64,000 nt of DNA from Candidatus Chisholmbacteria bacterium RIFCSPHIGHO2_01_FULL_52_32 (GTDB taxonomy: Bacteria; Patescibacteriota; Microgenomatia; UBA1400; Chisholmbacteraceae): contig MHCJ01000003.1 in assembly GCA_001816585.1 (NCBI GenBank), forward strand, positions 522,681 to 586,680, in the 5' to 3' direction. The notes beneath the pieces are model-generated. The model was not told where the DNA came from. It was given only the letters and a program-made list of their open reading frames with translations, and searched no databases. How positions within the stretch are numbered: position 1 is the stretch's first letter; every line of letters begins with the position of its first letter. Position numbers and translations under genes: made by a program. Positions 24,094 to 44,036 of this stretch are shown here, piece by piece.

Positions 24094-24094
24094 C

Positions 24095-25057
24095 TTATTC
24101 CCTTGGTTGTTTTCTTCGGAAGAGGATCGTGCCGCCGCCAACGAGAATGAGAAGGATACCGGCAACAATCGGCCACTGTGCGGCTTTCAAGGCGCTTAAG
24201 AATCCTGGCGTAGTGGGAGTAGGCGAAGGAGCGGCTTCACCTAAGACTATTCCCTCTGAGGATTCTTCGTTCGGTAGTTGGAGCTCTTCCTTCGGTTCTT
24301 CGACGGCCGTGCCGCTTGCGATCGATCCGCCGGTTCCTGCCGGAATTGCCCCTGTGGTCGGGGTCGCCTGGATAATGGTAATGGATGTCGTATCTCCGAC
24401 CGCATCGGATCCGTTGCCCGCATCATTGAAGGCGCGGACGGCATAGTAGTAGGTCTTATTGCACTCCGGCACGGTGTCCAGATGCGAGCCTTCCTGGTTT
24501 GAACCGATGGTGACCGTCGCAATCCTCGTACCGGAATCTGCGTTGAAGCTTGTCTGATCGGAGCGGTAGACCTCGACTTTGACCGTCTTGCCGGCGTCGT
24601 CCGCAGTCTTAAATTTAATATTGTATTGGCACGTTGAGGGATGATCTTTCCCATAATACGTGGGTGTCCCCGGGCCTCCAGCTTTGTAATCGACAGAGAC
24701 GGTCGCGGATTGGACTGTTTCTGCTTCGGCTGAGGCGATTACATAATACTGGTAGGTGCCCTCGGCGCTTACCAAACTCGAGGTGACGCTGCAGGTTCCC
24801 GAACCACCGCCTGAAGGAAGGTTTTTGTCCGAATCAAAGATAGAAAATCCTCCCTCGCTGGGCGTCTTTTTATAACAGCGGACCACAACCGGGCGGTTTT
24901 GGATGTCGAGTGCGACAAAGGTAATAGTGTAGTCCCGCTGGTTTTCCGGTGTCTTGGGCTTTTCGAGCACCGCTGAAAGACCCGCAGCGTACACCGCCCC
25001 TTCAGTGAGAATTGCGAAGGCGAGTACCGATAGTGCAACTTTCACGATTTTATTCAT
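24095..25057 (-). CDS. secreted protein with a C-terminal TM helix and basic tail (candidate sortase substrate with a non-canonical sorting motif)
   Basis: Signal peptide; C-terminus ...TPGFLSALKAAQWPIVAGILLILVGGGTILFRRKQPRE. Confidence 0.5.
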   Translation of the reverse strand: MNKIVKVALSVLAFAILTEGAVYAAGLSAVLEKPKTPENQRDYTITFVALDIQNRPVVVRCYKKTPSEGGFSIFDSDKNLPSGGGSGTCSVTSSLVSAEGTYQYYVIASAEAETVQSATVSVDYKAGGPGTPTYYGKDHPSTCQYNIKFKTADDAGKTVKVEVYRSDQTSFNADSGTRIATVTIGSNQEGSHLDTVPECNKTYYYAVRAFNDAGNGSDAVGDTTSITIIQATPTTGAIPAGTGGSIASGTAVEEPKEELQLPNEESSEGIVLGEAAPSPTPTTPGFLSALKAAQWPIVAGILLILVGGGTILFRRKQPRE

Positions 25058-28000: not shown

Positions 28001-30122
28001 CAATCGTCACCGTTGCATTGCCGCCGCTGGCTAATGAACCGAGTTCACACTGGATCGATGGTGCGGAAGTGTCAGAACACGATCCCAGGCTTGGCGTAAC
28101 CGAAGTTATGGCATATCCTGCAGGCAACGTATCGGTTACAACCACTCCGCTTGCTGTATCAGGCCCTGCATTGTTAATCGTGAGTGTATAGGTAAGGGTA
28201 TCACCGCTGGTAACCGGGTCCGGGTTGTCGCTTTTGACGATAGATAGGTCTGAAAGGGCTTCGTAACAGTTGAGGTGGTCTTTGTTGTAGTTATTTGCAT
28301 TCGTTGACGTTGCAAAAAACTTTGTGGTTGAGACATTAATGCCTCTTGACGTGAGTTCTGAAACAGGAATAGCCCAATCAATATAATAAGGACCCGATCC
28401 AGTTACGCGTCCATAAAAAGAAGATGCTCCTTCCCAAACTACACTATCTGCAGGATCATTAAAGAGTGGTTGAAAGTCTACTCCCCCCGAATCAGGAGAA
28501 TGGGTAGGGTTATCGTAAAGAAGAACTTTATTGCCGGCTTTACCGCTTATGGAGCCGAGATATTGGTATTGTGGAGTAGAAGTCTGAAATAACACTACCC
28601 AAGAATACTGATGCAAATTACTTACTGTTCCCGGGTTTCCATTTATGCGCTCTCTGAAGTACAAGTAATTGCTATCTGAACCAAATCCCACGGCGGGGGT
28701 AACAGTAGTTCCGACCAGATCAACTTCAGTTGGAGCAACACCAGATTCACCAGACAGATCAGCAACACAACTACCAGGTGTAGCCCAACTTGTAGGCCAA
28801 GCTGGCGCTGGTACTTCTGTATAAGTAACAACAGCGCGAATGGTACCAACCCATACTTCACTCGTGTCAGTGGCAGTTTTTAAAACCCCAACTTCAAGTG
28901 TTGTTGCTCCGCTTTTAACTGTATCGGCAACATTTATGGTTTGTGTCCCTGAAGTACACGTGGTATTTGTTGCGACGAGATTAACTCCTGAATTCAATTC
29001 AGTACCGTTGAGGCGTGTGAAAGTCTGAAATGTACCGTCATCTGCCCCGCCATCATTACCATTTCTGTAAGTTACACTTACATCAACACTAGTTATTGTA
29101 GATCCATCAGGAATACTTGTTAGATTGATTAAGACTGATTCGCGATTCCCGGTAGTTGAGGCTGATATATTGTCTTGACCGTCTCCTCCATCGTCGCAAT
29201 CTGGAGAGCCTGTTTCGTCGATATCACCTTCATCACCCGTCCAGCTTGTATATGTTCCTTGTCCGTTAGGGTAAAGCGTTCCTGTGGCTGCATCTGTAAA
29301 TGTTGTTGAGGCAACAACCTGACCATCAACATCTTTCGCTTCGACTAAATAGTTGGGACGGTAATTGCCATCAAGTTGATAGGCGTAGATGAAGAAGCCG
29401 GTTTCGTCGGCTTGTACCTCGGTTTCAAAATGCACGGCTGGTTCATTCTCCGAAGTAATTACAATAGTGTAGGTCTCGTTAGGGGTGAAGTCGGTGCCGG
29501 TGATGACCACGGTATCAGTGGGTGCGTAATCTGGTTTATCGGTTACAAGAGCGGCGCTCGTTTCAGCGTCGGGCGAGGCGAGATCCAAGGATACCGCTTC
29601 AACGTTTTGAAGAACGGCAACGGTCAGTTGGCCTTCTTCAGGACTGACTGTGGTGACTTCGGGCATTGGGATGGCTTCCGTCGAAGCACCATCAAGGATT
29701 TGATCGGTCGGTTCCGTTGCGGGAGGTCCTGTTTCATTGGGAGGCGCTTCGTCTGAAGAAGCTGGGATGTCTTGGCTTGATGTGGGTGCAGGAGTGATTT
29801 CCGGCGTCGGTTCGGGAGCTAGGGTCGGTTCGGGAGTAACCTCCGGCGTCGGTGCGGGTGTCGGAGACTGGGTGGTTTCAGGTTCGTTGATAGGATCGGA
29901 AGTAATCGTTTGTTCCGGCTCTGGGTCGGTAGTAAGTTCTGCGGAAGGCGTTTGTTCTTCCGCAGGTGTCGGGATCGGTGTTTCTTCAACTACCGTGGTT
30001 GGTTCGGGAGTTATTTCTTGCGCGTATGCAAATTGTGCGAGCGCAATCGGATTGAGCGATTGAATGAAAATCGCGACGATGGCGATGAGGTTGGTGGTTT
30101 TCCGAGCGAGCTTTATGTTCAC
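25050..30122 (-). CDS. giant (1690 aa) LPATG-anchored surface protein with tandem beta-sandwich repeats ending in TCTITNDD
   Basis: Signal peptide; more than 8 repeats of (G/S)YTxxxWxGDCDxxGxVTLxxGxxKTCTIxNDD...LTLxKxVxNDNGG; C-terminus ALPATGAQN + hydrophobic helix + KERNKHE. GTG start. Confidence 0.8.
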   Translation of the reverse strand: MNIKLARKTTNLIAIVAIFIQSLNPIALAQFAYAQEITPEPTTVVEETPIPTPAEEQTPSAELTTDPEPEQTITSDPINEPETTQSPTPAPTPEVTPEPTLAPEPTPEITPAPTSSQDIPASSDEAPPNETGPPATEPTDQILDGASTEAIPMPEVTTVSPEEGQLTVAVLQNVEAVSLDLASPDAETSAALVTDKPDYAPTDTVVITGTDFTPNETYTIVITSENEPAVHFETEVQADETGFFIYAYQLDGNYRPNYLVEAKDVDGQVVASTTFTDAATGTLYPNGQGTYTSWTGDEGDIDETGSPDCDDGGDGQDNISASTTGNRESVLINLTSIPDGSTITSVDVSVTYRNGNDGGADDGTFQTFTRLNGTELNSGVNLVATNTTCTSGTQTINVADTVKSGATTLEVGVLKTATDTSEVWVGTIRAVVTYTEVPAPAWPTSWATPGSCVADLSGESGVAPTEVDLVGTTVTPAVGFGSDSNYLYFRERINGNPGTVSNLHQYSWVVLFQTSTPQYQYLGSISGKAGNKVLLYDNPTHSPDSGGVDFQPLFNDPADSVVWEGASSFYGRVTGSGPYYIDWAIPVSELTSRGINVSTTKFFATSTNANNYNKDHLNCYEALSDLSIVKSDNPDPVTSGDTLTYTLTINNAGPDTASGVVVTDTLPAGYAITSVTPSLGSCSDTSAPSIQCELGSLASGGNATVTIVGTLTTGQVSVTNSAAVTLDTAVSTDTNSTNNSDSEDTAVIQQGTLRVIKSVVNDDGGQTSSSAFTLHVKSGGVDISGSPQAGSSTGTVYTLTGGTYAVSEDTLPPGYTFSGFSGNCDSQGNVTVVAGQEVTCTLTNDDQPGILIVKKVVTNDNGGTLEAEDFSFQVNGGGAVPFEADGQNDLTVDAGTYTITEPSVTGYSTTYDNCSQVEVSNGGTATCTITNDDQQASLTLVKNLPNDDGGTATENNFTVYIDGNQASWGSHLLNAGSYIVSEDTLGGYTAGNWGGDCDASGNVILLPGDQKTCEITNDDQPATLTLVKTLPNDNGGNETEINFAVYINGQVSSWGAHTVAAGSYTVSEDAVSGYSASGWGDDCDSQGNVTLLPGESKTCTITNDDIAPTITLVKEVINDNGGTASENDFGLTVDGGGVTSGQVAAVNANTPIAINEAGLTGYTFISLTGDEKCPSQLGGTVTLDEGEDITCTITNDDVQPKLTVTKVVVTDNGGTKQVGDFPLFVDQTPVTSGVQNGFDAGAYTVSETQDAGYTMAISGDCDAQGSVTLAVGDEKSCTIENDDIAPTLTLEKTVVNDNGGNASADDFQASIDASPIPWGIPQTLNVGSYTASESELSGYTAGSWGGDCNEDGSVTLAEGENKTCTIENDDQPGTIAGKKWNDEDGNGELGEEPGLAGWHVQLFLDEDGDLGDQVGDDAVTDQNGNYLFENIDAGDYFICEVPQEGWEQTYPTEPSCHAVTLESGENDLGNNFGNQQLPTEFQISKVNDASGAKGPGDTVIYTLTIYNPNRRTIFNVQVTDLLPEGFSYVGGSWTALSNERGDLKEGGVTPEPVYASPGVWQLGDMTALETVLLSFQAKISDTQLAGTYGDLAYAFGCQKDIDCLSTDPGALLALAVDPGYLDTNFVGTEVEVKKDNQPGASYNVINQVLGAATALPATGAQNLWLILASLMMIFGIGLVSLGVKERNKHE

Positions 30123-30603: not shown

Positions 30604-31350
30604 TTAATACAGCTTCTGAATCCCCGTGATGTCGCCGTCGTTTAGGGTCCGTTTGATGATATCCCCTTCGGTTGAGTAGCCGAACATGGTTTCAAGGTTG
30701 CAGGATGTGTTGTAGAGATCGTCCATGCCGGCGCTGTGACCGAGTTCGTGGGTCGCTATGTTGCGTAGGTCCATCAATAAGGGATTACTTGTCGCGTCAC
30801 CCCATGTCCAGCTGGAATCTGTGTTAAACAACATGTCCCACTCAACGAGCGCCCTGGTTTGCGGCGGGCCGCCGAAATAGCCCCAGACGTTCGTCACTGC
30901 GATCACGCCGGAATCAGCGTATGGTCCGAATGAGGCACTGTTCTTTCCGTCCATACTTTCGTTATAGGTTATATCCGGATCCTTGATACTGTTTCCGAAG
31001 ATGCTGTTTCCTCCGTAGTTTTCCCACTCGGATACTCCGGCATCAACTGCGTTCATGACATCATTGTCATTGAGTCCATCAGGATTGGTGGGATTGACAC
31101 GGTAATCCTCCGTTGTCTTCCACTTGGCCCCATTGGCAAGGAATCCATAGCATGCAGTTGCTTTTGGTTTTCCGACCTGCGCTGGCTTGGCATATCCTTT
31201 TTTGTGGTGGATGAAGGTGATCTTGGTTAAGGGGCCTCGATCATCAAGGCCTTTGGGACGCTCGTCACCGTTTTGGGCCAAAATAGGGAACGCCCAAACC
31301 AGTGCGGTAAAAATCCCAAGAATCGAGAATGTAACTATTGCTTTCTTCAT
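30604..31350 (-). CDS. secreted zinc metalloprotease, HExxHxxGxxD (snapalysin/M7-like metzincin-type motif)
   Basis: IATHELGHSAGMDDLY. Signal peptide MKKAIVTFSILGIFTALVWAFPILAQ (start moved to this Met). Confidence 0.55.
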   Translation of the reverse strand: MKKAIVTFSILGIFTALVWAFPILAQNGDERPKGLDDRGPLTKITFIHHKKGYAKPAQVGKPKATACYGFLANGAKWKTTEDYRVNPTNPDGLNDNDVMNAVDAGVSEWENYGGNSIFGNSIKDPDITYNESMDGKNSASFGPYADSGVIAVTNVWGYFGGPPQTRALVEWDMLFNTDSSWTWGDATSNPLLMDLRNIATHELGHSAGMDDLYNTSCNLETMFGYSTEGDIIKRTLNDGDITGIQKLY

Positions 31351-31472
31351 TATCTGTTCACCACCTTTCTTTTCGCTGTGATGGTACGATAACTGATCGC
31401 GACTTTCTGTGTTGTATATTACACTATTCTTGCAACTTATGGGCCAGTTAGCAAATGACTCTGTTATTATTG

Positions 31473-31748
31473 TCAAGCGGTCTCGTTCTTTTCAATACGC
31501 TGGAAGATTACTCCTTCTTCCCTACACTCATGGCAAAGCGGAAATGCCTCCCTTGCCGGAGCACCTTGTTCTTCAATAAAACTGCTCCCTCTTGTTGCAG
31601 GGAGTACATCTTGTGCGGCTCTTGCCAGATCGAGCGCAAGTTCAGGACTTGCCGGGAACCCGATTTTCAGGCACTGAGTGTTTTGCTCCGGGTCCTTTGA
31701 ACAGATTCGCAGGCTTACGGTGCGTGCTTGAATACCTTCTTTAAACAT
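31473..31748 (-). CDS. small Cys-containing hypothetical protein, overlaps the metalloprotease start by 4 nt
   Basis: C-x9-C ... CHEC; operon position only. Confidence 0.3.
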   Translation of the reverse strand: MFKEGIQARTVSLRICSKDPEQNTQCLKIGFPASPELALDLARAAQDVLPATRGSSFIEEQGAPAREAFPLCHECREEGVIFQRIEKNETA

Positions 31749-31830: not shown

Positions 31831-31849
31831 GTACAGGTGCGACCTGTAC
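31831..31849. repeat. REP element (perfect) preceded by a GGTAGGGATTTCCCTACC hairpin
   Basis: Seen directly; intergenic gap 31749-31850. Confidence 0.85.
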
Positions 31850-32111: not shown

Positions 32112-32813
32112 ATGTATTTCTTAATGCCAATCATCCCCGTAGGCTTGACTATAAGTTTTTCCTATGTTAGGATACCCGTCACTCCTGCCGCTTCTGCCAA
32201 GGACCCGCCCAAACGTATGATCCAATTCCTAACTGCATTGTTGTTGTTTGTGTTCGGCTTCAATCCGGTGACCCAACCGCCGGTTTCTCCTGTAGAAATC
32301 CTCGCACTGGCCGAAGAACATCTTTCTCAGATTGAAGTACCGGCACAGGTTGAAGTACCTGTAGGCGACCCGGTTTCCCAACACGCCCAAGGTCCGCAGG
32401 ACAGCGGAGAAGCGAATCCGCCGGCCCAGATTTTCCAAGATTCTCAAAATGATGAGGATCCCGAGGATCCTCCCGCCCCTTCCGTTTCCCAGCAAGGCAC
32501 CGAACCTGAACAGCCGGACACCACGAAAGTTACAGCCTACAATACCTCAAGCGGAACGGTGATTGAGCAAGTGGCGGCGGTTGCGGTTGAACACGCAGGA
32601 CCTTTAGTTTCCTGTGATGACCCGACGGTGTCGGAACTTTGTGAAGAATCGTCCGTGCCCGAATCGGATCCTGAACCAACACCGACACCCACCCCAACGC
32701 CCCCGCCCGGTGACCCTGAACCCCCATTTCCCCCACCTCCGTGTCCACCCTTTCCACATTCCGAAGGGGGAAGGGCGCTTTTAATGCCCTGTCTCCTCGA
32801 CTCCGATTTCTGA
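32112..32813 (+). CDS. Pro-rich secreted hypothetical protein
   Basis: TM/signal helix, PTPTPTPTPPPGDPEPPFPPPP tail. Confidence 0.35.
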   Translation: MYFLMPIIPVGLTISFSYVRIPVTPAASAKDPPKRMIQFLTALLLFVFGFNPVTQPPVSPVEILALAEEHLSQIEVPAQVEVPVGDPVSQHAQGPQDSGEANPPAQIFQDSQNDEDPEDPPAPSVSQQGTEPEQPDTTKVTAYNTSSGTVIEQVAAVAVEHAGPLVSCDDPTVSELCEESSVPESDPEPTPTPTPTPPPGDPEPPFPPPPCPPFPHSEGGRALLMPCLLDSDF

Positions 32814-32860: not shown

Positions 32861-33351
32861 CAAGAATATCAAGCATCCCGGAGAACTTGAGGAAAATTAC
32901 GAACTTATTTCAAAACTCCGTAGATACCCTGGAACTTCGATCCAACTTTCTCAAGTGATTATGCGTTTTTTGAGACGACCTAACTTTCCTAAAGAATTGT
33001 TCTTGGAAGTGCGGCCGCACTTTAAATAACAATATGTATCGCAGACATCTCTATGAGTCCGTTTCAAAACTCTATTTCCTGTAAGTTTTAACGCAGTGAT
33101 CCGATTTGATTTTTTTAAGTTGGGTTTGGACCTCATTTTTCCCACATACGTATACAAAGATGCAGTTGACAGTATGTGCTACGCGTTTGGTACACTGCAA
33201 CTAATCTTCTTTTTGTTGGCCGCCAACGGAAACAAAGAAGGCACTGCCCCAGAATCAATCCCTGTCCTTTTTTAGTGAAGTCTGCCCAGACTGCTTAGCA
33301 TGAAACGAATTCTGCTCAGCCTGCTTTTCTTTGATACCGTTGGAGGGACTT

Positions 33352-33381
33352 AAGACTCCTTTATTTTTGGAGTCTTTTTTT
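33352..33381 (+). terminator. rho-independent terminator (AAGACTCC-TTTATTTTT-GGAGTCTT followed by TTTTT)
   Basis: 8-bp stem plus T-run on the + strand. No annotated + strand gene within 500 bp upstream. Confidence 0.55.
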
Positions 33382-33422
33382 GTGGATAGTTAAGTTATCA
33401 GTTTGGCAGTTTGGCTTGAAAG

Positions 33423-33809
33423 TTGGTGATCAACATGAAAAACATTCTTAAACGCACTGCCTCGGTGGCTGTTGCTGGTGCTTTGCTTCTGCAGTTCTCG
33501 TCCACTGTGTTTGCAGGAACCAGAGTTGTGATTCGGAACAACGGTGCACATAGCAGGAACAGGGTAAGGATACAGAGTACGCAGGACGTGGATGTTACAC
33601 AAACCAATAGGGCGAATATCACGAACACGGTCGTGGCTGTTGCAAACACGGGAGATAACCTTGCCAATGGGAATACCGGCGGGAATACCTCGATCACCAC
33701 GGGTGATGCCTCGGCTTCGGCAACAATCGTCAATGTTGCGAATGCCAATATTGCGGTGGTGAATACCTGTTGTAATGGGGATACTCCGTGTGAACCGGTG
33801 GTTGAATGA
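33423..33809 (+). CDS. small secreted protein = one copy of the 'NTGxN...NTGG...CC' repeat domain
   Basis: Signal peptide; Q(S/T)NxAxxxNxVxAxANTGDNLANGNTGGNTSITTGDA...VNTCC. Same repeat as in 37190..38524, 52014..53174, 53235..55433 and 55575..56867. Confidence 0.5.
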   Translation: MVINMKNILKRTASVAVAGALLLQFSSTVFAGTRVVIRNNGAHSRNRVRIQSTQDVDVTQTNRANITNTVVAVANTGDNLANGNTGGNTSITTGDASASATIVNVANANIAVVNTCCNGDTPCEPVVE

Positions 33810-33915
33810 ATCTGCCCGAAAGATTACGGGTAGTTTGACATTATTTATTGCCAGGTCCCGGTGAGATAGGCTCTGCCACCTCACGGGTTCAAACAAGAGG
33901 TAACACATTACAATA

Positions 33916-34758
33916 GTGCCTCTTCAGAAAGGTGGTGAAAAAACAATGAAGCGATTTTTATTGAGCGTGTTTACGATTGCCGCGGTTGCCGGACTCGCGT
34001 TCGGCGCAACATCGGCGTTCTTCTCCGATACGGAAACGTCAACGGGGAATACATTCGCGGCAGGAGAATTGGATCTTCACATCGATAACACCAGTTATCT
34101 TAATGGAGCGCTCAATCCAGGCACTACGTGGGAGCCTTCTGATTTAACAAATCAGTTATTTTTCAATTTTCTCGATGTTAAGCCCGGAGACGAGGGTGAA
34201 GATACAGTTAGTATTCATGTTGCTGACAACGATGCTTGGGCGTGCGTGGACATCGATATCACTGAGAACGATGACGTGAGTTGTACAGAACCTGAATTGG
34301 CTGATGATGGAACTTGTGCAGAAGGAGATGGAGTGCCAGACGGTGATCTTACCGATGGTGATTTAGCAGGCGACCTTGAGTTTTTGTTCTGGACCGATGA
34401 TGGTGACAATGTGTTTGAAGACGATGAAACTCCCTTAACTCAAGGTTTGGCATCTTCGGTTCTTAACGATGTAACGTGGACTCTGGCTGATGCGGATGAA
34501 AATAACGTTGGCGGAATAGATGGGGATCCTTTGGATGGTGATACGACCTACCACATCGGAAAGGCATGGTGCTTTGGTGATCTAACCCTAGATGCAACTG
34601 CATCAGGGCAAGGTGTTAATCCAACGGTCGATCCAGGTGTTGAATGTAACGGGACTCTCGTTGATGATGCCTCGCAGTCTGACAAGTTGATGGGTGATAT
34701 CAGCTTCTACGCTGAGCAGTGGAGGAACAATCCGAATTTCCAGTGCGGGCAGGATTAA
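33916..34758 (+). CDS. TasA/camelysin (M73)-like protein with a SipW-cognate-type signal peptide, copy 1
   Basis: MKRFLLSVFTIAAVAGLAFGATSAFFSDTETSTGNTFAAGELDL; ...FFNFLDVKPGDEGEDTVSIHV. Confidence 0.6.
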   Translation: MPLQKGGEKTMKRFLLSVFTIAAVAGLAFGATSAFFSDTETSTGNTFAAGELDLHIDNTSYLNGALNPGTTWEPSDLTNQLFFNFLDVKPGDEGEDTVSIHVADNDAWACVDIDITENDDVSCTEPELADDGTCAEGDGVPDGDLTDGDLAGDLEFLFWTDDGDNVFEDDETPLTQGLASSVLNDVTWTLADADENNVGGIDGDPLDGDTTYHIGKAWCFGDLTLDATASGQGVNPTVDPGVECNGTLVDDASQSDKLMGDISFYAEQWRNNPNFQCGQD

Positions 34759-35018
34759 TTGGAGTCGGATTGATAGTTGACAAGATATTTTGTGCGATCC
34801 TCTAGCCCTTCGGCTAAGCTCAGGGTCTTAATCGATCCTCTGACTTTGCGCAAGGGTTAGAGGGTACCCCGCTGGTCGGACGCACGGCATGGGAAAGACT
34901 CAATCTTCCTTTGCTACTGCCCGGCCGGCGGGGTGCCGCCCAACTTCAGCCAACTGAAGTTGGAAAATCCGAAATCCGAAGCACGAAGCACGAAATAAAT
35001 GCTTTATGCAAGTAGGAT

Positions 35019-35885
35019 ATGTGTGGAGGTATGAAGAAGCTTTTTGTCAGCCTGGTTACGTTGGCCGCTGTGGGAGCGCTTGGTTTTGGCGCAACGCGGG
35101 CGTTCTTTTCCGACACCGAAACCAGTACGGGAAATACCTTTCAAGCCGGAGGCCTTGATTTGAAAGTCGATAGCGAGTGCCACTACTTCCAAAATAATGA
35201 GGCCATCGGCTGCGATGGCTTCGGCACATGGGGAGAAGCGGATTTGGTTCCGGGAATTCACAAATTTTTCAACTTTACGGATATCAAACCCGGTGACTAC
35301 GGAGAAGATACGCTAAGCCTTCATGTTGTCGGTAACGATGCCTGGGGGCGGCTGGTCATCGGTGATTTTCAAGATTCTGATAATACATGTCCCGAACCTG
35401 AAGAAGAAGCGGAAGGAGAACCTTGCGGGACAGAAGGGGAACTTGGGGAGAATTTACTGGTCTCTGTGTGGCTTGATCAAGGGATAAGCGTTGGATTTGG
35501 GGGAAAACCGTCCCCACAAGGAGGAGATGCGGGAGAAGGGGACAACATTCGGCAAACCCAAGAACCATTTCTGATCGCTGAGACCACGCTCGATCAGCTT
35601 CCAAGCACTATTGACCTTACTCAAGAACTTGCCGATTATCGCCAGTCTATTAGTGCCACCTGCGATTTTTATGATCCGGATGGTGACGGTCAAACCGGCG
35701 GGCCGGGATATTGTCAAGGATTGGCCACTGATGGGCGTCTTGTAGGCAGCGTTACCTACTATTTTGCGATTGCCTGGGAGCTACCGGCGAGTGTCGGAAA
35801 TGAGGTGCAGACAGATAGTGTTGGATTTGATCTTGCGTTTGAAGTAGAACAGACTCGGAATAACCCGACGCCTTTTGAGATCTAA
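35019..35885 (+). CDS. TasA/camelysin-like protein with a SipW-cognate-type signal peptide, copy 2
   Basis: MKKLFVSLVTLAAVGALGFGATRAFFSDTETSTGNTFQAGGLDL; FFNFTDIKPGDYGEDTLSLHV. Confidence 0.6.
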   Translation: MCGGMKKLFVSLVTLAAVGALGFGATRAFFSDTETSTGNTFQAGGLDLKVDSECHYFQNNEAIGCDGFGTWGEADLVPGIHKFFNFTDIKPGDYGEDTLSLHVVGNDAWGRLVIGDFQDSDNTCPEPEEEAEGEPCGTEGELGENLLVSVWLDQGISVGFGGKPSPQGGDAGEGDNIRQTQEPFLIAETTLDQLPSTIDLTQELADYRQSISATCDFYDPDGDGQTGGPGYCQGLATDGRLVGSVTYYFAIAWELPASVGNEVQTDSVGFDLAFEVEQTRNNPTPFEI

Positions 35886-37188
35886 GATCGCATCTATGAT
35901 AGATGTTTTGAAAATGAGAGTACCACTAATCAAAGGTTTTTTTGTTATTTTTCAAGTCTTTCTTGGAACCGCGATTGTTGGAACTGCGGCTCTTCTTCTG
36001 GCCGATCACTTCGGGGTGTTGGAGTTTGTCAAACCCTATGTCGTCATGTCCGGGTCGATGGAGCCGGCGGTCCGGCTTGGAAGTGTGGTGGTCGTGCGAC
36101 CGCAATCTTCCTATTCATCTAATGACGTTGTTACCTATGCCCCTAATGGAGACAAAGAAAAACCGGTCACCCACCGCATCCTGTTCAAGTCGTATCCTGA
36201 CGGCATTACCCAGGCGCCTGTTTACCTCACAAAAGGTGATGCTAATGAGGATTTCGATCGGGCTGCGGTGAGTGCAAAAGACGTTATCGGGAAGTCGCTG
36301 TTTGTAATCCCCTTTCTTGGTTATGTGGTGAATTTCGCCAAACAGCCGTATGGATTTATCTTCCTCGTGATTGTTCCGGCAACGATTGTGATTTACGAGG
36401 AATTCAAATTCCTTGGGAAAGAACTCTCTATTTTCCTCATGAACAGTTCTTCTTGGCTATCCGCCCGGATCTCTAAGAAGAACGGAATTCGTCTGCGTCG
36501 GGGGATCAATCTTCTTTCGAAACGCGAAAAGGGAGTTCCCAAAGCAGCGGCTGTTGTTCCGGTCATCGGGACGATTTTGGTTCTTTCCGCTTTCACCGGT
36601 GCGTTTTTCTCGGATACCGAGCAAAGCTCCGGGAATGTCTTCAGCGCGGCGGAGAGTTTCGGACCGCCGATTGCAAATCATCTGGTGATCAATGAAGTGT
36701 ATTACGATGTGGCACCAGGTAAAGGAGATGAAGGTGATAGTGCAAATCCAGACGAGTGGGTTGAGCTCTATAATCCTACTTCTTCACCTGTCGATATCAA
36801 AGATTGGAGTATAGGTGATGATGAGGATGGAGATAATGTCTCCTCCGCTGAAAAAATTATTCCTCCTGGAGGTTTTGCTCTTATTGCAAAAAGCAATAGC
36901 ACCTGGAATAACTGGGATGAAGATCCTGATGCGGACAAGATCCCTATCGGAGATAAGATTGGTAATGGTCTAGCCAACGCAGGTGACACAGTAATTCTCC
37001 TTGATGACAATGGAGCTGAAGTTGATCGAATGAGTTGGGGAAACGATACTTCTGGTTTCACTTCAGGTTGTGCATCCTCATGCCCTACAGTTGCTGAAGG
37101 TCACTCGTTAGAGAGAGATCCAGATGGAGTTGATACAAATACCGCTGCTGATTTTGTTGACCGCACAACTCCAACGCCAGGTACCTAA
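35875..37188 (+). CDS. sipW: ER/archaeal-type signal peptidase I (SipW, S26B) fused in frame to a C-terminal lamin-tail domain (LTD) segment that carries its own SipW-cognate-like signal motif
   Basis: S26B Ser motif VVMSGSMEP, His motif PVTHRI, TKGDANEDFD; then TM helix; then KKNGIRLRRG...AAAVVPVIGTILVLSAFTGAFFSDTEQSSGN; then LTD (LVINEVYYD...EWVELYNPT...DIKDWSI...GDTVILLD). No stop codon between the two parts. Confidence 0.65.
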   Translation: MRSKIASMIDVLKMRVPLIKGFFVIFQVFLGTAIVGTAALLLADHFGVLEFVKPYVVMSGSMEPAVRLGSVVVVRPQSSYSSNDVVTYAPNGDKEKPVTHRILFKSYPDGITQAPVYLTKGDANEDFDRAAVSAKDVIGKSLFVIPFLGYVVNFAKQPYGFIFLVIVPATIVIYEEFKFLGKELSIFLMNSSSWLSARISKKNGIRLRRGINLLSKREKGVPKAAAVVPVIGTILVLSAFTGAFFSDTEQSSGNVFSAAESFGPPIANHLVINEVYYDVAPGKGDEGDSANPDEWVELYNPTSSPVDIKDWSIGDDEDGDNVSSAEKIIPPGGFALIAKSNSTWNNWDEDPDADKIPIGDKIGNGLANAGDTVILLDDNGAEVDRMSWGNDTSGFTSGCASSCPTVAEGHSLERDPDGVDTNTAADFVDRTTPTPGT

Positions 37189-37189
37189 G

Positions 37190-38524
37190 ATGAAAAAAGC
37201 AATTAGAAAAATCCTGATTTTAATACTCGCACTAGCGGTTATTGCTCGATTCGGGAATTTCCGGCAGGAGCGTTCGAGACCCGTCTATGCCGTTGGCGAT
37301 TTGGTGATCACACATGGTGGCAATCCTCTCGGACCGCCGATTTTTACCGTGACGAATATGCTGCCTGGGGACGAGGAGTCTCAAGATGTGGTCGTCACAA
37401 ACAGCGGAACGGTCCCCCGGTTTGTGGCGGTTCGGGGCGTACGGACGGGACCTCCTGATGAGTTGGATCCGAAGTTTGAGACCGTCCTTGAGATTGTTAT
37501 CAGCGAAGGGGGAACGGATCTTTACGGCGGGACGCTCGGCACGAAGACGGTTCAGGACTTTTTCGATGACAGCACAGACCCGAACGGAATTCTTCTCTCA
37601 ATCGTCAACCCATCTGACACAACCACCTACCATTTTGAGGTTACCTTCCCTGAGTCGGGTGATAATGACTTCGATAACCAGTTTCAGGGAAAATCGGTGA
37701 TTTTCGATCTCATCTTTGGCGTTATCACCGGAGAAAGCTTAGTGATCAACGAGGTGTACTACGAAGTCGACGGGAACCACGGGGTTGATAGTCCGAAGGA
37801 CCGCGGGATCGTTTCGATTAACGGGAGGAATATAACCGTTATTATCGAAGGGAACGGGGCCGGCTCGACCAACACGGTGACTATGACGATTTCGCAGTAC
37901 TGTAATATCACCCAATCGAACAACGCTACTATTAATAATGGTGTGATTGTTATTTCTAATACCGGGGGCAACTCGGCATCCGGGAACACCGGAGGGAGTA
38001 CCTCGATCATCACCGGGGCGGCCAATGCGGTCGTCAACATCATCAACATCGCAAACCTTAATATCGGCACCTGCAACGGGAAAAAGCTCGGTCTGAACGA
38101 TGAATGGATTGAGATTTACAACCCGACGGACCACGCGATTTCCCTTAAAAACTGGCGGCTGCGGGATAATTCCGGTTCGGATACCGTGATCAACGCCAAT
38201 AAGAGCGTTCCGGCGTTTGGGTTCGCCCTGATTTCTAAGGACGCCCGGCCCTGGAGCTTCTGGAACGAGAATCCCCTGGCAAAGAAAATCGAGCTTGGGC
38301 GGCAGATCGGGGATGGCCTCGACAACGATGGGGACCATGTATACCTCAAGAAGCCGGATGGGACGGTGGTTGACGCTGTCGGCTGGGGCGATGATACGGC
38401 GGTTTGGAATCCGGCAGTACCTCTGGTTGCCTTAGGATCTTCGATCGAGCGGTTGGTTCCCGGGTTTGATTTCGATCTTGTTTCCGACTGGGATGAGCAA
38501 GCTCCTCCAACTCCCGGTATTTAG
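37190..38524 (+). CDS. secreted protein: TasA-like N-terminal region plus an LTD interrupted by a 'NTGGN...NTGG' repeat insert
   Basis: Start at MKKAIRKILILILALAV; TNMLPGDEESQDVVVTNSG; LVINEVYYEVDG...[GNGAGSTN...NTGGNSASGNTGGSTSIITGAANA...NIGTCNG]...EWIEIYNPTDHAISLKNWRL...GDHVYL. Confidence 0.55.
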   Translation: MKKAIRKILILILALAVIARFGNFRQERSRPVYAVGDLVITHGGNPLGPPIFTVTNMLPGDEESQDVVVTNSGTVPRFVAVRGVRTGPPDELDPKFETVLEIVISEGGTDLYGGTLGTKTVQDFFDDSTDPNGILLSIVNPSDTTTYHFEVTFPESGDNDFDNQFQGKSVIFDLIFGVITGESLVINEVYYEVDGNHGVDSPKDRGIVSINGRNITVIIEGNGAGSTNTVTMTISQYCNITQSNNATINNGVIVISNTGGNSASGNTGGSTSIITGAANAVVNIINIANLNIGTCNGKKLGLNDEWIEIYNPTDHAISLKNWRLRDNSGSDTVINANKSVPAFGFALISKDARPWSFWNENPLAKKIELGRQIGDGLDNDGDHVYLKKPDGTVVDAVGWGDDTAVWNPAVPLVALGSSIERLVPGFDFDLVSDWDEQAPPTPGI

Positions 38525-38540
38525 TTCCTTTCTTCCCTCC

Positions 38541-38608
38541 GTACAGGTGCGACCTGTACGTGTGAATATACATGGCTATCTGACCTCCTGTACAGGTGCG
38601 ACCTGTAC
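38541..38608. repeat. direct REP doublet (38541-38559 and 38590-38608, both perfect)
   Basis: CCTCCGTACAGGTGCGACCTGTACGTGTG...CCTCCTGTACAGGTGCGACCTGTACATGGCG, in the convergent gap between the LTD gene and sortase 2. Confidence 0.85.
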
Positions 38609-38615
38609 ATGGCGG

Positions 38616-39173
38616 CTAGAGGAGGGCGGCAAAGGATGAGGCGGGTTTGGCGATGATGATCAGGCGTTGGGATTTTTGCGCTCCCGTGCAAGTAAGGAGC
38701 GTGAGGCGTTCGTCGGCTGTCTGTGCAATGACCCCGACCTCGGCCGGGCTGACAACGCGGATCGCGGAAACAAGATAACTTTTTGTTTTCCCTTCTCCCT
38801 CGATGAAGACCCGATCGCCAAGAAAAACTTTCTCAAGCGGTCCGAAGAAGTCTTCGGTATTGTGCGCATATATCACCGCGTTTCCCCATTCTCCAGGTTT
38901 GGCACTGGTTGCGAGGTAGGAGGCGGCATCCGGGAAGAACTCATAGCTTCCCGCTTGGCTTGCTGCTGACTTGAGTTGCAGATCAAGGTTCGTTTTTGGA
39001 ATGTATATCCTTTCCGGGGTGACAATGACCCTTTGGTGGTACTCGTGGGTTGGGGCTTGCACCAAGAGCGGGGCAAATTGGCTCTCGACCGGCTGAGGGT
39101 TTTGTCCAAACAGCGAGGCAAGGCTCATCCCGGCAAACGTGGCGATGGTGGCAACGAGCAATGGTATCTTCAT
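38616..39173 (-). CDS. sortase family transpeptidase (sortase 2)
   Basis: N-terminal TM helix; VIYAHNTEDFFGPL; TLxTC motif LTLLTC. Confidence 0.65.
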   Translation of the reverse strand: MKIPLLVATIATFAGMSLASLFGQNPQPVESQFAPLLVQAPTHEYHQRVIVTPERIYIPKTNLDLQLKSAASQAGSYEFFPDAASYLATSAKPGEWGNAVIYAHNTEDFFGPLEKVFLGDRVFIEGEGKTKSYLVSAIRVVSPAEVGVIAQTADERLTLLTCTGAQKSQRLIIIAKPASSFAALL

Positions 39174-39332
39174 GACTTCCTTTATAAAAAGGACTCCTAG
39201 TGGGAATCCTTGCGGCCTATACTATCCTTTCTCCCTTCGTTGTCAAGTCTGTACAGGTGCGACCTGTACGCGCAGTTTTTCCTGGCATTCATTCTCTCTG
39301 TACAGGTCGCACCTGTACGGTACAATGGGCAT

Positions 39333-39992
39333 ATGCCCGCAAAGTACACAGTCAAGATGTATGTTGAAAACGGTTATTATCATCTCCTCAACAGAGGGGT
39401 GGATAAACGATCTATTTTCTTCGATAAGAAAGATTCCGTCACCTTTCTGTCTCTTCTTAAGCGCTACCTTACTAATCCTGACCTTCTCCCACCTGAACTT
39501 CAGTTTCTCCGCCCGTCGCGCAGGTCGCACCTGTACGAGCAGATAACGCTCGTTGCCTACTGCCTTATGCCAAACCACTTTCACCTACTTGTAAGGCAGA
39601 AATCCAGGAACGCCATCACTGAATTCGCCCGTTGCCTCATGAACTCCTATGTCCGGCACTTTAATGACCGCCACGAGCGAGTAGGTCCTCTCTTCCAAGG
39701 AAGAATCAAGGGGATACTGGTGGATAATGATTCCTACCTCCTCCATTTGACACGATATATCCACCGCAATCCGGAAGAGTTTTGGGAACGTTCTCTTCGA
39801 GATTACCCGTATTCAAGCTATGCTGAGTATCTTGGTCTTCGAAGTACCTCTTGGATTCATCCGGAAGCGATTCTTGCCTATTTCAGATCACCCCTAAATA
39901 AAAGTCTGCATGATTATTTTTCCTACGAAAGCTTCGTCGAGGAATCAAAAGACGATTCGTCTGAGATCCTTAAGGAGATCACCCTCGAATAG
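39333..39992 (+). CDS. REP-associated tyrosine transposase (RAYT; IS200/IS605-like Y1 HuH transposase, transposase_17 type)
   Basis: YYHLLNRG...FFD (N-terminal motif), HuH motif AYCLMPNHFHLL, catalytic Tyr region YLLHLTRYIHRNP, DYPYSSY. Start at Met42 of the track ORF because the upstream in-frame residues are REP sequence. Flanked by REP doublets. Confidence 0.8.
   Translation: MPAKYTVKMYVENGYYHLLNRGVDKRSIFFDKKDSVTFLSLLKRYLTNPDLLPPELQFLRPSRRSHLYEQITLVAYCLMPNHFHLLVRQKSRNAITEFARCLMNSYVRHFNDRHERVGPLFQGRIKGILVDNDSYLLHLTRYIHRNPEEFWERSLRDYPYSSYAEYLGLRSTSWIHPEAILAYFRSPLNKSLHDYFSYESFVEESKDDSSEILKEITLE
39520..39536. repeat. REP-like copy inside the rayT coding sequence (GCAGGTCGCACCTGTAC, inverted orientation, 17 of 19 positions)
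   Basis: In frame it encodes RRSHLYE within a variable region of the RAYT, just upstream of the HuH motif. Confidence 0.6.
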
Positions 39993-40067
39993 CACCTCCG
40001 TACAGGTGCGACCTGTACGGTGTGTACGGGTGCGACCTGTACATGCGTGTTCTTTTGCTACCACTTG

Positions 40068-40613: not shown

Positions 40614-43600
40614 TCAATCCCCTACAATAAAGATTACATTAGCATCAAGCTCATGACCAAATTCAGATACACCTATCAGGTAAGTCTTGCCAGACTTAAA
40701 GTTGTAATCGCGAAGATGAAGATTAACGATGTAGTGTTGTTTGTCTGCGTCAATTCGTATGACATCGCTTTTCCCATGCAGACCTGGATTTTCCATTGAA
40801 AGGAATGCAATGGCCGAAGAGGGATTGCTCGGATCAACGACCCAAACCTGCACACTCTCATCTTCAGCAAATCTTCCTTCAGCATCACGAATGGTGAACT
40901 TGATGGGAAGGGTCGCATTGCGTGAAACTCTCGGCGGTTTATCCGGATCATTTAACGGTGAGTCCCATTGGATACTTAATGGAGCCGTGGGAAGACTAGC
41001 TCGATTATATGTAGCCGTATGCTCATGAATGTCTCCTGGTGAGGTGGTCCCTGTGAATTCTGCGAAGGTAAGAATGCCTGCGTCACTAAGCGCTTGTACT
41101 AGTACCATGTAATTTCCTTCCTCTACTCCTAGTAACTTGATTGTGTATTCTCCCTCCAAGGGATCCGGGATGAAGATGAAGTCCGGCTCATTAACCTCAA
41201 TTGATCTACTGAACAATGTTCCCGGAATTTCTGATAGTTCCTCACCTGTATTAAAATCAAGGCCCACTCGTCTTCCCAGAGGATCGGTTATCTGAATTTC
41301 CACCGGCGAGAGAATAATGAACCCTAAAGCAGCCTCATGCAAATTGATGCCCGGATCAACAAAGCCGGCGTTAAAAAATGGTCGTGTCTTCGTTAAGAGC
41401 TCTACAATGCTTTGTTGGAGTTGGGTCGGCAAGTGTCCATGCTCAATAATCGATGTATTATCTGCACTCAGATAATACCGGGGCACGAGACGAGTATCGA
41501 TGAAGCTTAGATCAGCGCTCGCTGTTGGTACGGTTTTATCTCCTCTTCCCAGTGGACGAAAATCTCTGCCTTTTAATACCTTTCCGTTCTGCCATATGCC
41601 ATAAATATCATCTAGAAGGTTGCGCCCCACGACTTTGTACAATTTGTCAGTATCCTCAAGTGGACGTTCATTCTCATAGCGATCTCCGACTACAGAAATC
41701 ACATTGTTTCCTCCTAACCGATTAATGAGAACTACTATATTTTCATTGAGTGAGGTCAAGAATTCATTTATCTGATGCCCGAATGGGTAAATCGAGTTTA
41801 AATTATCTGCGGCGACAAGATACCCTCCGGGATCATCCCTCAAATACTCATCCACTGGAAAAAGTTCTCGGATACTCGGCACCTTATCTTTAATGTATTG
41901 GTAGAGATCAGTCTTCGTGGTGAAGCAGAGCTTTGTGAGGTCGGTACAGTACCCTTTCTTCCTCGCTAGAGCGCGGAGTAACCATTCCGCAAGAATCTTT
42001 CCTTTATCGCCGACGATATCATCGAAGAAATCAAATTCCAGACCTTCTGCCGCCAGGTACGCTTTCGGTGCACCAAGGTGGGGTGTTCCTAGCGTGATCA
42101 GCCGATGGACATCTCCCGTGTATGAATCGCCTTGGACGTAGGCGCGGGACACAAGCCCGCCAAGACTGTGCCCAACAAGATCCACGGAAGAGGAGTCCAC
42201 GTACTCCGACACTGATGCTTTTGGAAGCATTGAGCTTCGTATTGCAATGCCTAACTCGCCTCCTGACTTGGAAATGTGCTGTCTCCAGTCATACGGGAAT
42301 GTGAATAGGCTTTGATCAACTTCGTACCCAGCAAATTGTAATTCTTCGAGAAGATTGTTATATGTACCGAGGATAGGATCTATAGTCCATTGTCCAAAAG
42401 CATTTTTCATCGAACCCAGTAGGCCGGGAATAACTACCACCGGATGGATTCGGGCAGTTGGGATAATCATGGTTTCTTGATCGACGCCGAGGATTTCTCC
42501 GTTTGAATCATTAAACATTTTCGCGGTAACGAGAATGGTTTGCCCCGACATCGGCTGAATCCACATCGGCCACATTATTGGGAGGGACTGACCGGGATTT
42601 AACCTTAATGCTCGTCTTAGTATCGCTGGTGGCTCGAGGAGCGTTCCATTATCTTCAAAGAGCAGGCGACTGGGATTTGAGAACGAGACTTCGAGATCCC
42701 CCACCATAATGGCAGATCCCGTATTTGACACACTCACTCGTACTTCCGTGGGATTCTGTGCATACCAACCATCTTCATTGAGCGTGAGTTCGTGCGGTAC
42801 AGCGACATCGACGATTGGACCAGAACCTAATGGTGCGGTGGTGGAGAAGAAAATATCCCAGCTGGTACCTTCGATTTCCTCCATCCAAACAGCATAGGCG
42901 TAGCCCTGTCCATCCATGGCCACATCGGGGGCAAGTTTGCGACGTGTCAGGTCAGGAGTAACGAGAGTGTTCGGACTCCAGGTTCCATCTGCCTCCCTAT
43001 ATGTAGAGTAGATCTCATAGGAATCAGGGAGAACAGTGATGAGGTTATCCGCCCAGACCACAACGGCCTCCCCGGCAGGAGTGACGGCAATTGCCGAAAA
43101 ATCACGGAAGCCATTTTGGGCGTCGCTGACTTGACTGATCGGATCCCATGCTCCACTCGCGTTCCGCTTGCGGAAGGCAATCTCCCAGTCCGGAGTGGCT
43201 TGTGTCCAAACCACATAGGAATTCGCGGAGGCGTCAATTCCGACATCGGGGTTTTGGCCGAAAGCGGTGGAGACGGGTTCGTTCGCTCCCCAAGAATCTC
43301 CTTGTGGACGATGGGAGAAATAGATCTGCTGGAGTCTATTGCGCAGATCGGTCCAAACTACAGCCGCATTCCCGCCCTGATCGACAGTAAGGGAGGGCCC
43401 GCGTGTACCGCTCGTGATCACGGACCCCGGGACATCGTTGACTAGTGTATCAGTTCCCCAGTTTCCTCCATGGGGTCGGTAGTCGAAAAAGAGGTCTTGA
43501 AAATCAGTAGAATCGGGAGGATTCCGCCGATCATACCAAGCAGCATAGGCATTTCCCGCAGGATCAACGGCAATATCCGCATAGGGCTGGGCTTGGGCAT

Positions 43601-44036
43601 CGGGATCGGTTACCTGTTCCCGAACGAGGGTTTCCGTGGCCCAGCCTCCCCCGGCAGGAAGAAAGACAAACCAGAGTTTCCCAAAGCTTTCCCAAAGCAC
43701 ATAGGCATTCCCGCCTGCGTCCACGGCGATACTCGGTTCGTCGCCGACCGTTAAGGCATCGTTCACCTGTACTTCCGATCCCCAATTCCCTCCCGCAGGA
43801 CGGTAATCCACGTAGATGTCAAAGTGATTACTATTTCGCTTATCCATCCAGACCGCGTAGGCGTTGCCCGCCCCATCAACCGTAACTGAAATTGCCGGAT
43901 ACCACTGCTCGGCAGGTCCAAGGTCATCATTCACTCGGACCTTGGGGCTCCAAACAGGGTCGGCGGCATGGGCAGAGGGAGTAAAAAAGAAAAAAGGGAG
44001 GAAAAAGAGAAGTGTGAAGATGCATCGGCGGATCAT
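40614..44036 (-). CDS. large secreted protein: 7-bladed beta-propeller (xGNAYxVW repeats) + PGAP1-like alpha/beta-hydrolase (lipase/esterase, GHSLGG) + C-terminal beta-sandwich domains; paralog 1
   Basis: Signal peptide; repeats DGAGNAYAVWMDKRN x7; VVVIPGLLGS...LVGHSLGGLVSRAY...LITLGTPHLGAPKA. Confidence 0.7.
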   Translation of the reverse strand: MIRRCIFTLLFFLPFFFFTPSAHAADPVWSPKVRVNDDLGPAEQWYPAISVTVDGAGNAYAVWMDKRNSNHFDIYVDYRPAGGNWGSEVQVNDALTVGDEPSIAVDAGGNAYVLWESFGKLWFVFLPAGGGWATETLVREQVTDPDAQAQPYADIAVDPAGNAYAAWYDRRNPPDSTDFQDLFFDYRPHGGNWGTDTLVNDVPGSVITSGTRGPSLTVDQGGNAAVVWTDLRNRLQQIYFSHRPQGDSWGANEPVSTAFGQNPDVGIDASANSYVVWTQATPDWEIAFRKRNASGAWDPISQVSDAQNGFRDFSAIAVTPAGEAVVVWADNLITVLPDSYEIYSTYREADGTWSPNTLVTPDLTRRKLAPDVAMDGQGYAYAVWMEEIEGTSWDIFFSTTAPLGSGPIVDVAVPHELTLNEDGWYAQNPTEVRVSVSNTGSAIMVGDLEVSFSNPSRLLFEDNGTLLEPPAILRRALRLNPGQSLPIMWPMWIQPMSGQTILVTAKMFNDSNGEILGVDQETMIIPTARIHPVVVIPGLLGSMKNAFGQWTIDPILGTYNNLLEELQFAGYEVDQSLFTFPYDWRQHISKSGGELGIAIRSSMLPKASVSEYVDSSSVDLVGHSLGGLVSRAYVQGDSYTGDVHRLITLGTPHLGAPKAYLAAEGLEFDFFDDIVGDKGKILAEWLLRALARKKGYCTDLTKLCFTTKTDLYQYIKDKVPSIRELFPVDEYLRDDPGGYLVAADNLNSIYPFGHQINEFLTSLNENIVVLINRLGGNNVISVVGDRYENERPLEDTDKLYKVVGRNLLDDIYGIWQNGKVLKGRDFRPLGRGDKTVPTASADLSFIDTRLVPRYYLSADNTSIIEHGHLPTQLQQSIVELLTKTRPFFNAGFVDPGINLHEAALGFIILSPVEIQITDPLGRRVGLDFNTGEELSEIPGTLFSRSIEVNEPDFIFIPDPLEGEYTIKLLGVEEGNYMVLVQALSDAGILTFAEFTGTTSPGDIHEHTATYNRASLPTAPLSIQWDSPLNDPDKPPRVSRNATLPIKFTIRDAEGRFAEDESVQVWVVDPSNPSSAIAFLSMENPGLHGKSDVIRIDADKQHYIVNLHLRDYNFKSGKTYLIGVSEFGHELDANVIFIVGD

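Follow-up and report, generated by a model that had tools for sequence, protein, structure and literature searches.

TasA fibres are the model of Gram-positive biofilm scaffolds. In Bacillus subtilis TasA, the donor strand corresponds to residues 28–38, which lie directly after the site cut by the signal peptidase SipW, and TapA, the initiator of the fibre, has an N-terminus that resembles the donor strand, together with a complete immunoglobulin (Ig) fold (PMC9674648; PMC10151520). The tapA and sipW genes are expressed together and have overlapping reading frames (PMC10151520). Here, we analyze a cluster of five genes (g1 to g5, + strand, 33435–38524) within a stretch of 64,000 nucleotides (nt), the whole of which is called the window below, from a genome of Candidatus Chisholmbacteria, a lineage of the Microgenomates within the candidate phyla radiation (CPR) that is represented by metagenome-assembled genomes from the Rifle aquifer. 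The cells of the CPR are mostly episymbionts. We conclude that the locus is a real and conserved TasA-type surface-fibre cluster, a Patescibacteria variant of the Bacillus TasA/SipW operon, and suggest that its signal peptidase forms one polypeptide with a protein that it would itself process, which bears a lamin tail domain (LTD).

Two other groups of described systems are pertinent. The archaeal bundling pili (AbpA/AbpB of Pyrobaculum) and other filaments of the TasA superfamily resemble our cluster in having TasA-fold, donor-strand-complemented subunits with a minor multi-domain partner encoded nearby, but they have neither a dedicated signal peptidase nor an LTD; the same paper mentions homologs of TasA (PF12389) in the Patescibacteria only as Pfam counts, and the Patescibacteria loci fell outside its analysis (PMC9245690). 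The function of the LTD in bacteria is unresolved in the literature, as the first-pass annotation of this DNA had also remarked, with targeting to membranes or other structures and assistance with DNA among the proposals (PMC6085458; PMC5118699). The extracellular nuclease ExeM/NucH, for example, is a secreted protein bearing PF00932, as are the proteins described here; in our cluster, however, the LTD has no hydrolase attached to it, its partner being a donor-strand peptide in g4 and a TasA-like domain in g5. In the literature on TasA or SipW combined with LTD or CPR, we found no description of this architecture.

The Cluster Compared with the Bacillus Operon

Inspection of the open reading frames (ORFs) placed every gene of the cluster where the first-pass annotation had put it, in the same order on the + strand. 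The features are as follows (aa, amino acids; AF2, AlphaFold2; ER, endoplasmic reticulum).

33435–33809, + strand: g1, small secreted protein of 124 aa consisting of one module of ~95 aa, which shares 52% identity with the g5 insert
33946–34758, + strand: g2, predicted TasA-like fibre subunit 1, 270 aa (TIGR04088, PF12389, AF2/Foldseek)
35031–35885, + strand: g3, predicted TasA-like fibre subunit 2, 284 aa, paralog of g2 (TIGR04088, PF12389)
35875–37188, + strand: g4, whole gene, SipW-LTD fusion (in NCBI a signal peptidase I of 430 aa starting at 35896)
35875–36603, + strand: g4, N-terminal part, SipW-class (archaeal/ER-type) signal peptidase I (TIGR02228)
36604–37188, + strand: g4, C-terminal part, protein predicted to be released by SipW, in which a short linker connects the donor-strand-like peptide FFSDTEQSSGNVF to the LTD (PF00932)
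37190–37744, + strand: g5, N-terminal part (g5N), signal or anchor helix and a divergent TasA/camelysin-like beta-sandwich (AF2, remote profile similarity)
37745–38524, + strand: g5, C-terminal part, LTD interrupted at about nt 37800–38080 by an inserted g1-like module (PF00932, Foldseek)

The g3 and g4 frames overlap, or are 10 nt apart if the NCBI start of g4 is used, and only 1 nt separates g4 from g5. Promoter and terminator scans of the cluster gave no signal above the shuffled expectation, and the boundaries of the operon are therefore drawn from spacing. The six proteins of the locus, counting that of the sortase gene considered below, are identical to those of RIFCSPLOWO2_01_FULL_50_28 and RIFCSPHIGHO2_01_FULL_52_32, where the records call them only hypothetical protein, signal peptidase I, LTD domain-containing protein or sortase.

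The cluster has several features in common with tapA-sipW-tasA of B. subtilis. Both loci encode a dedicated archaeal/ER-type signal peptidase beside its substrates; in both, the substrates bear TIGR04088-type signals, with the TasA fold in the major subunit; and in both, an accessory protein with a donor-strand-like N-terminus and a complete Ig-like domain adjoins or overlaps the peptidase gene. The wiring differs, however. Here, two TasA-like genes precede SipW and the accessories follow it, an LTD takes the place of the V-set Ig of TapA and is linked in one chain to the peptidase by an internal signal that is predicted to be cleavable, and there is an extra subunit (g5) that has no donor strand. 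In addition, g2, g3 and the peptidase all score below the Bacillus equivalog cutoffs, and the host is a CPR bacterium. We consider it very probable that g2 to g5 form a single SipW-dependent surface system.

The TasA-like Subunits

That g2 and g3 are paralogous TasA-like proteins with SipW-cognate signals, as had been proposed, was borne out by the profile searches. Both exceed the cutoffs of TIGR04088 (28.5 bits for g2 and 28.7 for g3; cutoff 19) and of PF12389 (31 and 25.4 bits; cutoff 22.5), and they are 42% identical to each other. The two proteins have the N-terminus FFSDTETSTGNTF in common; in g2, SipW cleavage is predicted at ...ATSA|FFSDTETSTGNTF, which would set the mature start near nt 34018. 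Their scores on the TasA equivalog model NF046066 are far too low (18.1 bits; cutoff 450), and hence they are best viewed as subunits of the TasA superfamily and not as orthologs of TasA.

Structure prediction led in the same direction. The AF2 model of g2 (predicted local distance difference test score, pLDDT, 84.5; predicted template modelling score, pTM, 0.82) leaves the initial 15 mature residues disordered, as is expected of a free donor strand. When it was compared with the PDB by Foldseek, the sole match at E<=1e-3 was the cryo-EM structure of the TasA fibre (8AUR_A; E 2.2e-5, probability 1.0). By this comparison a jelly-roll/beta-sandwich fold like that of TasA extends through the entire protein. 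Sequence searches of the PDB with g2, and with a profile of its family, returned nothing useful. The family is a large one (>2441 matches), and several sources label its members as TasA family or SipW-dependent signal proteins. An alignment of 40 sequences reveals three conserved motifs: FFSDTETSTGNTFxAGxLDL, DLKPGDxGEDT and, at the C-terminus, QTDxLxGDIxFxAEQxRNN.

Many close homologs of g2 (P0005, P0006 and P0011–P0015 among them) are about 470 aa long and end in a von Willebrand A domain (PF00092/PF13519), and others have a different C-terminal domain of ~170 aa. These sequences suggest that related genomes hold specialized, adhesin-bearing TasA-like subunits.

A Signal Peptidase Fused to a Predicted Substrate

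The sipW-LTD gene of the first-pass annotation is confirmed in both its halves. Residues 44–178 of g4 match the archaeal-type signal peptidase I model TIGR02228 (85.8 bits; cutoff 51.85), and the catalytic motifs SGSMEP, THR and GDAN are present in the sequence; the score on the Bacillus SipW equivalog NF046067 lies below its cutoff (89 vs 190). Residues 268–389 match the LTD family PF00932 (67.9 bits; cutoff 34.3). What that annotation missed is a SipW-type cleavage signal within g4 itself. Between the peptidase domain and the LTD there is a third hydrophobic segment, followed at residue 243 by the cleavage site AFTGA|FFSDTEQSSGNVF, and a motif search identified at this same residue the SipW-type site AFFSDTEQSSGN, with its AFFSDTE motif. 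The TIGR04088 hidden Markov model makes no report of the internal site, so that AFFSDTEQSSGN is seen by the motif search alone. By this search the window has exactly three SipW-type motifs: those of g2, of g3 and the internal one of g4. The predicted topology would be coherent: the first transmembrane segment (TM1) would lead out to an external catalytic domain, TM2 back in to a basic cytoplasmic loop, and TM3 out once more, which would put the cleavage site and the LTD outside the cell.

In about 20 related loci SipW has one gene and the LTD protein another, often with a 4-nt overlap, and the LTD protein of this split form begins with an N-terminal TM segment and an (A/S)(F/Y)(F/Y)xD signal. 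The fused form found in the window occurs in about 10 loci, with the motif kept internally. Because the internal motif of g4 is the same as the N-terminal signal of the separate LTD gene in the split relatives, the fusion appears to join SipW to its own substrate. The identical g4 protein of 437 aa was recovered on seven independent contigs, and for this reason the fused frame is not an assembly artefact. We conclude from these comparisons that the SipW of g4 is probably fused to one of its own substrates, from which it would be separated by cleavage at the internal site.

The portion that would be released was tested, at the level of sequence, for TapA-like features. Its N-terminal peptide FFSDTEQSSGNVF is a near-copy of the FFSDTETSTGNTF of g2 and g3, and the LTD comes after it. 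It has no sequence homology to TapA; we infer that the released protein may work in the manner of TapA, by analogy and not as a member of the TapA family.

The Second LTD Protein

The second LTD protein with a repeat insert, g5, was likewise upheld by its PF00932 match (56.4 bits; cutoff 34.3) and by the 52% identity of its insert to g1. The AF2 model (pLDDT 78.5) has a helix at residues 2–22, a confident beta domain at 38–178, a low-confidence insert at ~200–300 and a confident LTD, which in Foldseek matches the Ig-fold domains of lamins A/C, B1 and B2 with a probability of 1.0 (TMt 0.54–0.61). The TasA-like character of g5N is harder to see. Although g5 itself has no PF12389 match, 10 of 40 members of its family do (best E 1.2e-5), and short TasA-like ORFs in two related loci (L029 and L035) are matched in phmmer searches by both g2 and g5N. 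Foldseek with the g5 model found the beta-sandwiches of WxLIP and AvmM and did not find TasA. No FFSDTE donor-strand peptide is present in the g5 family.

At the C-terminus, the proteins with a g5N-type domain carry quite different modules: an LTD (in the window, L013, L025, L029 and L031), RTX-type repeats (L007, L008, L015, L016, L021, L034 and L088), LPXTG-like signals (LPVTG in L011, LPITG in L012, LVATG in L022 and LAGTG in L032) or a TM anchor (L038 and L087). From this pattern we infer that g5 would be an acceptor-only end subunit with an anchor or adhesin. The tip adhesins of chaperone-usher pili (FimH and PapG) offer an analogy, and only an analogy, in that g5 too would present an acceptor groove without a donor strand together with a second functional domain; neither the fold family nor the machinery of assembly is related, and Foldseek matches of the g5 model to the pilin domains of FimG and PapG are weak (E ~1e-2). 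The first-pass annotation had called an LTD-containing version of the TasA system unusual. This is not the case, since it is the common form in the Patescibacteria, where the full g5 architecture is represented by more than 100 protein clusters.

One further regularity was seen among the RTX-type (GGxGxD) g5N proteins, all of which end in SCEL or TCEL (L007, 7078–8229; L008, 2421–3614; L015, 5487–6626; L016, 11152–12411; L021, 11232–12242; L034, 5544–6353; L088 is also in this group). The tetrapeptide may be an unrecognized C-terminal signal.

Conservation of the Gene Order

For the analysis of synteny, one genome per species was scanned with g4 as the query, which gave 80 loci, 30 of them with a SipW homolog; the ORFs of these related loci were annotated by phmmer with the window's proteins as queries. 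The SipW loci are almost all from the Patescibacteria (Woese-, Gottesman-, Roizman-, Shapiro-, Kerfeld- and Beckwithbacteria, among others). From one to three TasA-like genes stand directly upstream of SipW in 25 of the 30, and a g5N-type gene directly downstream in 13. Three additional look-ups, anchored on TasA-like proteins, returned the same order of two to three TasA-like genes, SipW, a SipW-signal protein and a g5N-type protein; the SipW-signal protein carries an LTD in two of these three loci and is without one in the third (L089). The core order of one to three TasA-like genes, SipW, a SipW-signal protein usually bearing an LTD, and a g5N-type gene is thus conserved in the CPR/Patescibacteria. 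Neither outcome that the first-pass annotation had named as counting against it, loss of the TasA-like assignment in profile searches or a lack of co-conservation in relatives, was observed.

A Proposed Donor-Strand Model and Its Alternatives

We propose that g2 and g3 are exported and that the SipW domain of g4 would then cut each of them just ahead of FFSDTETSTGNTF, which, by homology with residues 28–38 of TasA, would serve as the donor strand linking the subunits into a fibre. TM3 of g4 would act as an internal signal peptide ending in the AFFSDTE site, and a cut at this point would release an LTD protein whose donor-strand look-alike N-terminus and complete Ig-like domain could cap or nucleate one end of the fibre. 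The g5 protein would be the mirror image of this, a TasA-like acceptor domain that has no donor strand, situated as an anchor or adhesin at the fibre's opposite end. This last position is proposed from its acceptor-only N-domain and its swappable C-terminal module. We put the probability of the whole explanation, in which g2 to g5, possibly with g1, constitute a donor-strand fibre system that is the variant of TasA/SipW in the Patescibacteria, at roughly 0.6. The two more specific components taken jointly, the donor-only and acceptor-only ends and the self-processing of g4, are a tentative proposal to which we give slightly less than even odds.

A number of observations weigh against this explanation. 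The PF12389 match in g2 and g3 is limited to the signal and first strand (~50–60 residues; model positions ~4–63), and the TM-score between the g2 model and TasA is a modest 0.45–0.47. The similarity of g5N to TasA is remote: the hhalign comparison with the g2 family gives a probability of 87% and an E of 4e-6 over ~70–80 columns only, and a PDB sequence search with the g5N profile had no match. In many g5N homologs, in favor of the model, a canonical AxA signal-peptidase site lies immediately ahead of strand 1, but in the subfamily of the window's g5 this site is ~13 residues past the hydrophobic core, so that g5 may remain uncleaved and anchored in the membrane. Strand exchange among the proteins of the cluster is itself suggested by homology with the Bacillus proteins, and the polarity of the presumed fibre, that is to say, which of its ends is proximal to the cell, is not deducible. 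Finally, g1 and the module inserted in g5 carry no assigned role, and the insert lies in the low-confidence region of the model.

The principal alternative is a secretion and processing module that makes no fibre, in which SipW would mature co-encoded surface or matrix proteins that act as independent adhesins or envelope components. SipW-type signals and folds are, strictly, what the data establish, and the extra adhesin-like domains of many family members, such as the von Willebrand A domain, would fit such a role, as would the absence of an LTD from the SipW-signal protein of L089. We nevertheless judge this unlikely: the post-cleavage peptide (FFSDTETSTGNTF and its relatives in g2, g3 and g4) is conserved far beyond what a signal peptidase needs, it corresponds to the donor strand of TasA, and the best structural match is to TasA in its fibre form. 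In a variation that concerns g4 alone, the fusion would not be cut and the LTD would remain tethered to the peptidase at the outer face of the membrane, where it could recruit substrates or bind the envelope. The maintenance of the fusion in about 10 lineages is consistent with this, and bacterial LTDs have indeed been proposed to direct proteins to membrane-associated structures (PMC6085458). But in about 20 relatives the LTD unit is encoded on its own, behind an ordinary SipW-type signal peptide at its N-terminus, and the cleavage motif is intact in the fused forms; a permanently uncleaved g4 is, in our opinion, quite unlikely.

The two remaining possibilities involve enzymes. The name of the matched Pfam family would make g2 and g3 camelysin-type (Peptidase_M73) surface metalloproteases and not structural subunits, but no HExxH-type motif is visible in either protein, the Pfam match extends over the signal and first strand only, and the predicted structure matches a TasA fibre subunit. 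This possibility has very little credibility. The convergent sortase downstream could attach or polymerize the proteins of the cluster. In six related loci a sortase of the same type is no more than 10 kb away from the cluster, and the g5N homologs of four others have LPXTG-like C-termini. Here, however, g1 to g5 have no sorting signal even by a relaxed pattern, the sortase gene is convergent with a repeat doublet between it and g5 and a transposase gene adjoining it, and its adjacent substrate in relatives is a separate small LA[TDA]TG protein that this locus does not have. A sortase-dependent structure is accordingly very unlikely at this locus, and the donor-strand fibre remains the explanation that we favor.

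The Sortase and the Flanking Repeats

The two features downstream of g5 are a doublet of repetitive extragenic palindromic (REP) elements and the sortase gene.

38541–38608, no strand: REP doublet separating g5 from the sortase, with GTACAGGTGCGACCTGTAC present in two exact copies, at 38541 and 38590
38616–39173, − strand: sortase of 185 aa, convergent with the cluster (PF04203, 74 bits)

The convergent sortase had been predicted correctly. Only the generic model TIGR01076 passes its NCBIfam cutoff with this protein, and no class-specific model does. The first-pass annotation had also made the sortase a member of the surface-fibre cluster, and this part of its claim was not supported. No C-terminal sorting signal was found in g1 to g5 with either strict or relaxed patterns, and the window's only LPXTG protein (1690 aa; 25050–30122, − strand) is in an operon with its own, second sortase (23482–24168). 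The closest relatives of the sortase at 38616, and not those of the second sortase, adjoin the cluster in L007, L009, L010, L015, L021 and L025; a sortase of some kind is within 10 kb of 9 of the 30 SipW loci. The small LA[TDA]TG protein stands beside the sortase in several of these six related loci and is absent from the window's locus. We therefore regard the sortase as a loose, recurrent neighbor whose functional coupling to the cluster is not supported in this genome. The second sortase (Pfam, 91 bits) is part of a separate, classical sortase locus (23482–30122, − strand) that also contains a 320-aa ORF (24095–25057), and its 1690-aa protein is composed of seven SpaA_2 domains, DUF11, Cna_B and an LPATG anchor.

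The REP doublets were said to lie on both sides of the cluster, which is accurate for the downstream side and not for the upstream one. The REP sequence GTACAGGTGCGACCTGTAC is found 24 times in the window, where the expected number is 0. Downstream, the doublet at 38541/38590 and a second one at 39251/39300 bracket the sortase; upstream, just one REP is present, at 31831, which is 1.6 kb ahead of g1. A gene for a REP-associated tyrosine transposase (RAYT; 39210–39992) adjoins the sortase, with further REPs at 40000 and 40024.

g1, Its Module and the Neighborhood

The first-pass annotation described g1 as a small repeat protein. It is present and secreted, but it contains one module of ~95 aa and is not internally repetitive. 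Its most likely start is the ATG at 33435, and the resulting product of 124 aa is identical to NCBI A2900_02855, a hypothetical protein of Chisholmbacteria. The module matches the g5 insert (residues ~217–280) with an E of 7e-15. A word-based homolog search with g1 retrieved 2 proteins only; an exhaustive search revealed a family of 1880 representative proteins, with ordinary signal peptides and usually 3–5 tandem copies of a module that starts with (V/I)xISGNGAxS and has the core NTGGNxAxGNTGG (P0243–P0391 are among the carriers). The module has no match in Pfam, NCBIfam or the PDB, and since the AF2 model of the g5 insert has a pLDDT of only ~45–60, no fold is assigned to it. A g1-like protein occurs in 5 of the 30 SipW loci, the insert is missing from some members of the g5 family (P0199, P0219, P0222 and P0234), and in L030 a g1-like module is in the SipW-LTD protein instead of g5. 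That g1 belongs to the system is plausible, but the case for it is weak. In the ENA metagenome calls (L001–L005) g1 is replaced by an antisense ORF of 172 aa (33390–33908, − strand). We rejected this frame as being without support, and g1 is preferred to it because the g1 protein is homologous to the in-frame insert of g5 and to sequences at other loci.

Just upstream of g1, a mini-ORF of 17 codons (33300–33383, + strand) encodes MKRILLSLLFFDTVGGT before its stop codon and looks like the start of TasA-like signal peptides. It could be the remnant of a gene or a leader. A terminator-like hairpin with a U-run lies 3' of it, the fold of which is no better than that of shuffled sequence. The neighborhood as a whole is rich in secreted proteins, with 30604–31476 and 40614–44036 (both − strand) among the genes that encode them; these neighbors include a matrixin-like metalloprotease (PF00413), a proline-rich protein of 233 aa (32112–32813) and a protein of 1140 aa with a PGAP1/LCAT-like alpha/beta-hydrolase domain.

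Significance

What is new here is a TasA system that would be wired differently from that of Bacillus: a peptidase fused to a TapA-like initiator, an LTD replacing the TapA Ig domain, and subunits with a swappable anchor and no donor strand. Its value is that of a well-supported hypothesis and not of a demonstrated mechanism, and it leads to testable predictions about how CPR bacteria build surface filaments, what LTDs do in bacteria (PMC6085458) and whether a substrate can be built into the very signal peptidase that cuts it. In its boldest version, which we advance as speculation and consider somewhat unlikely, g4 would be a self-processing polyprotein of peptidase and cargo, and the LTDs would serve as end-modules, providing an anchor or attachment to a host, on the main surface filament, other than type IV pili, of the Microgenomates episymbionts. 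If this were true, it would be the first defined structural role for a bacterial lamin tail domain.

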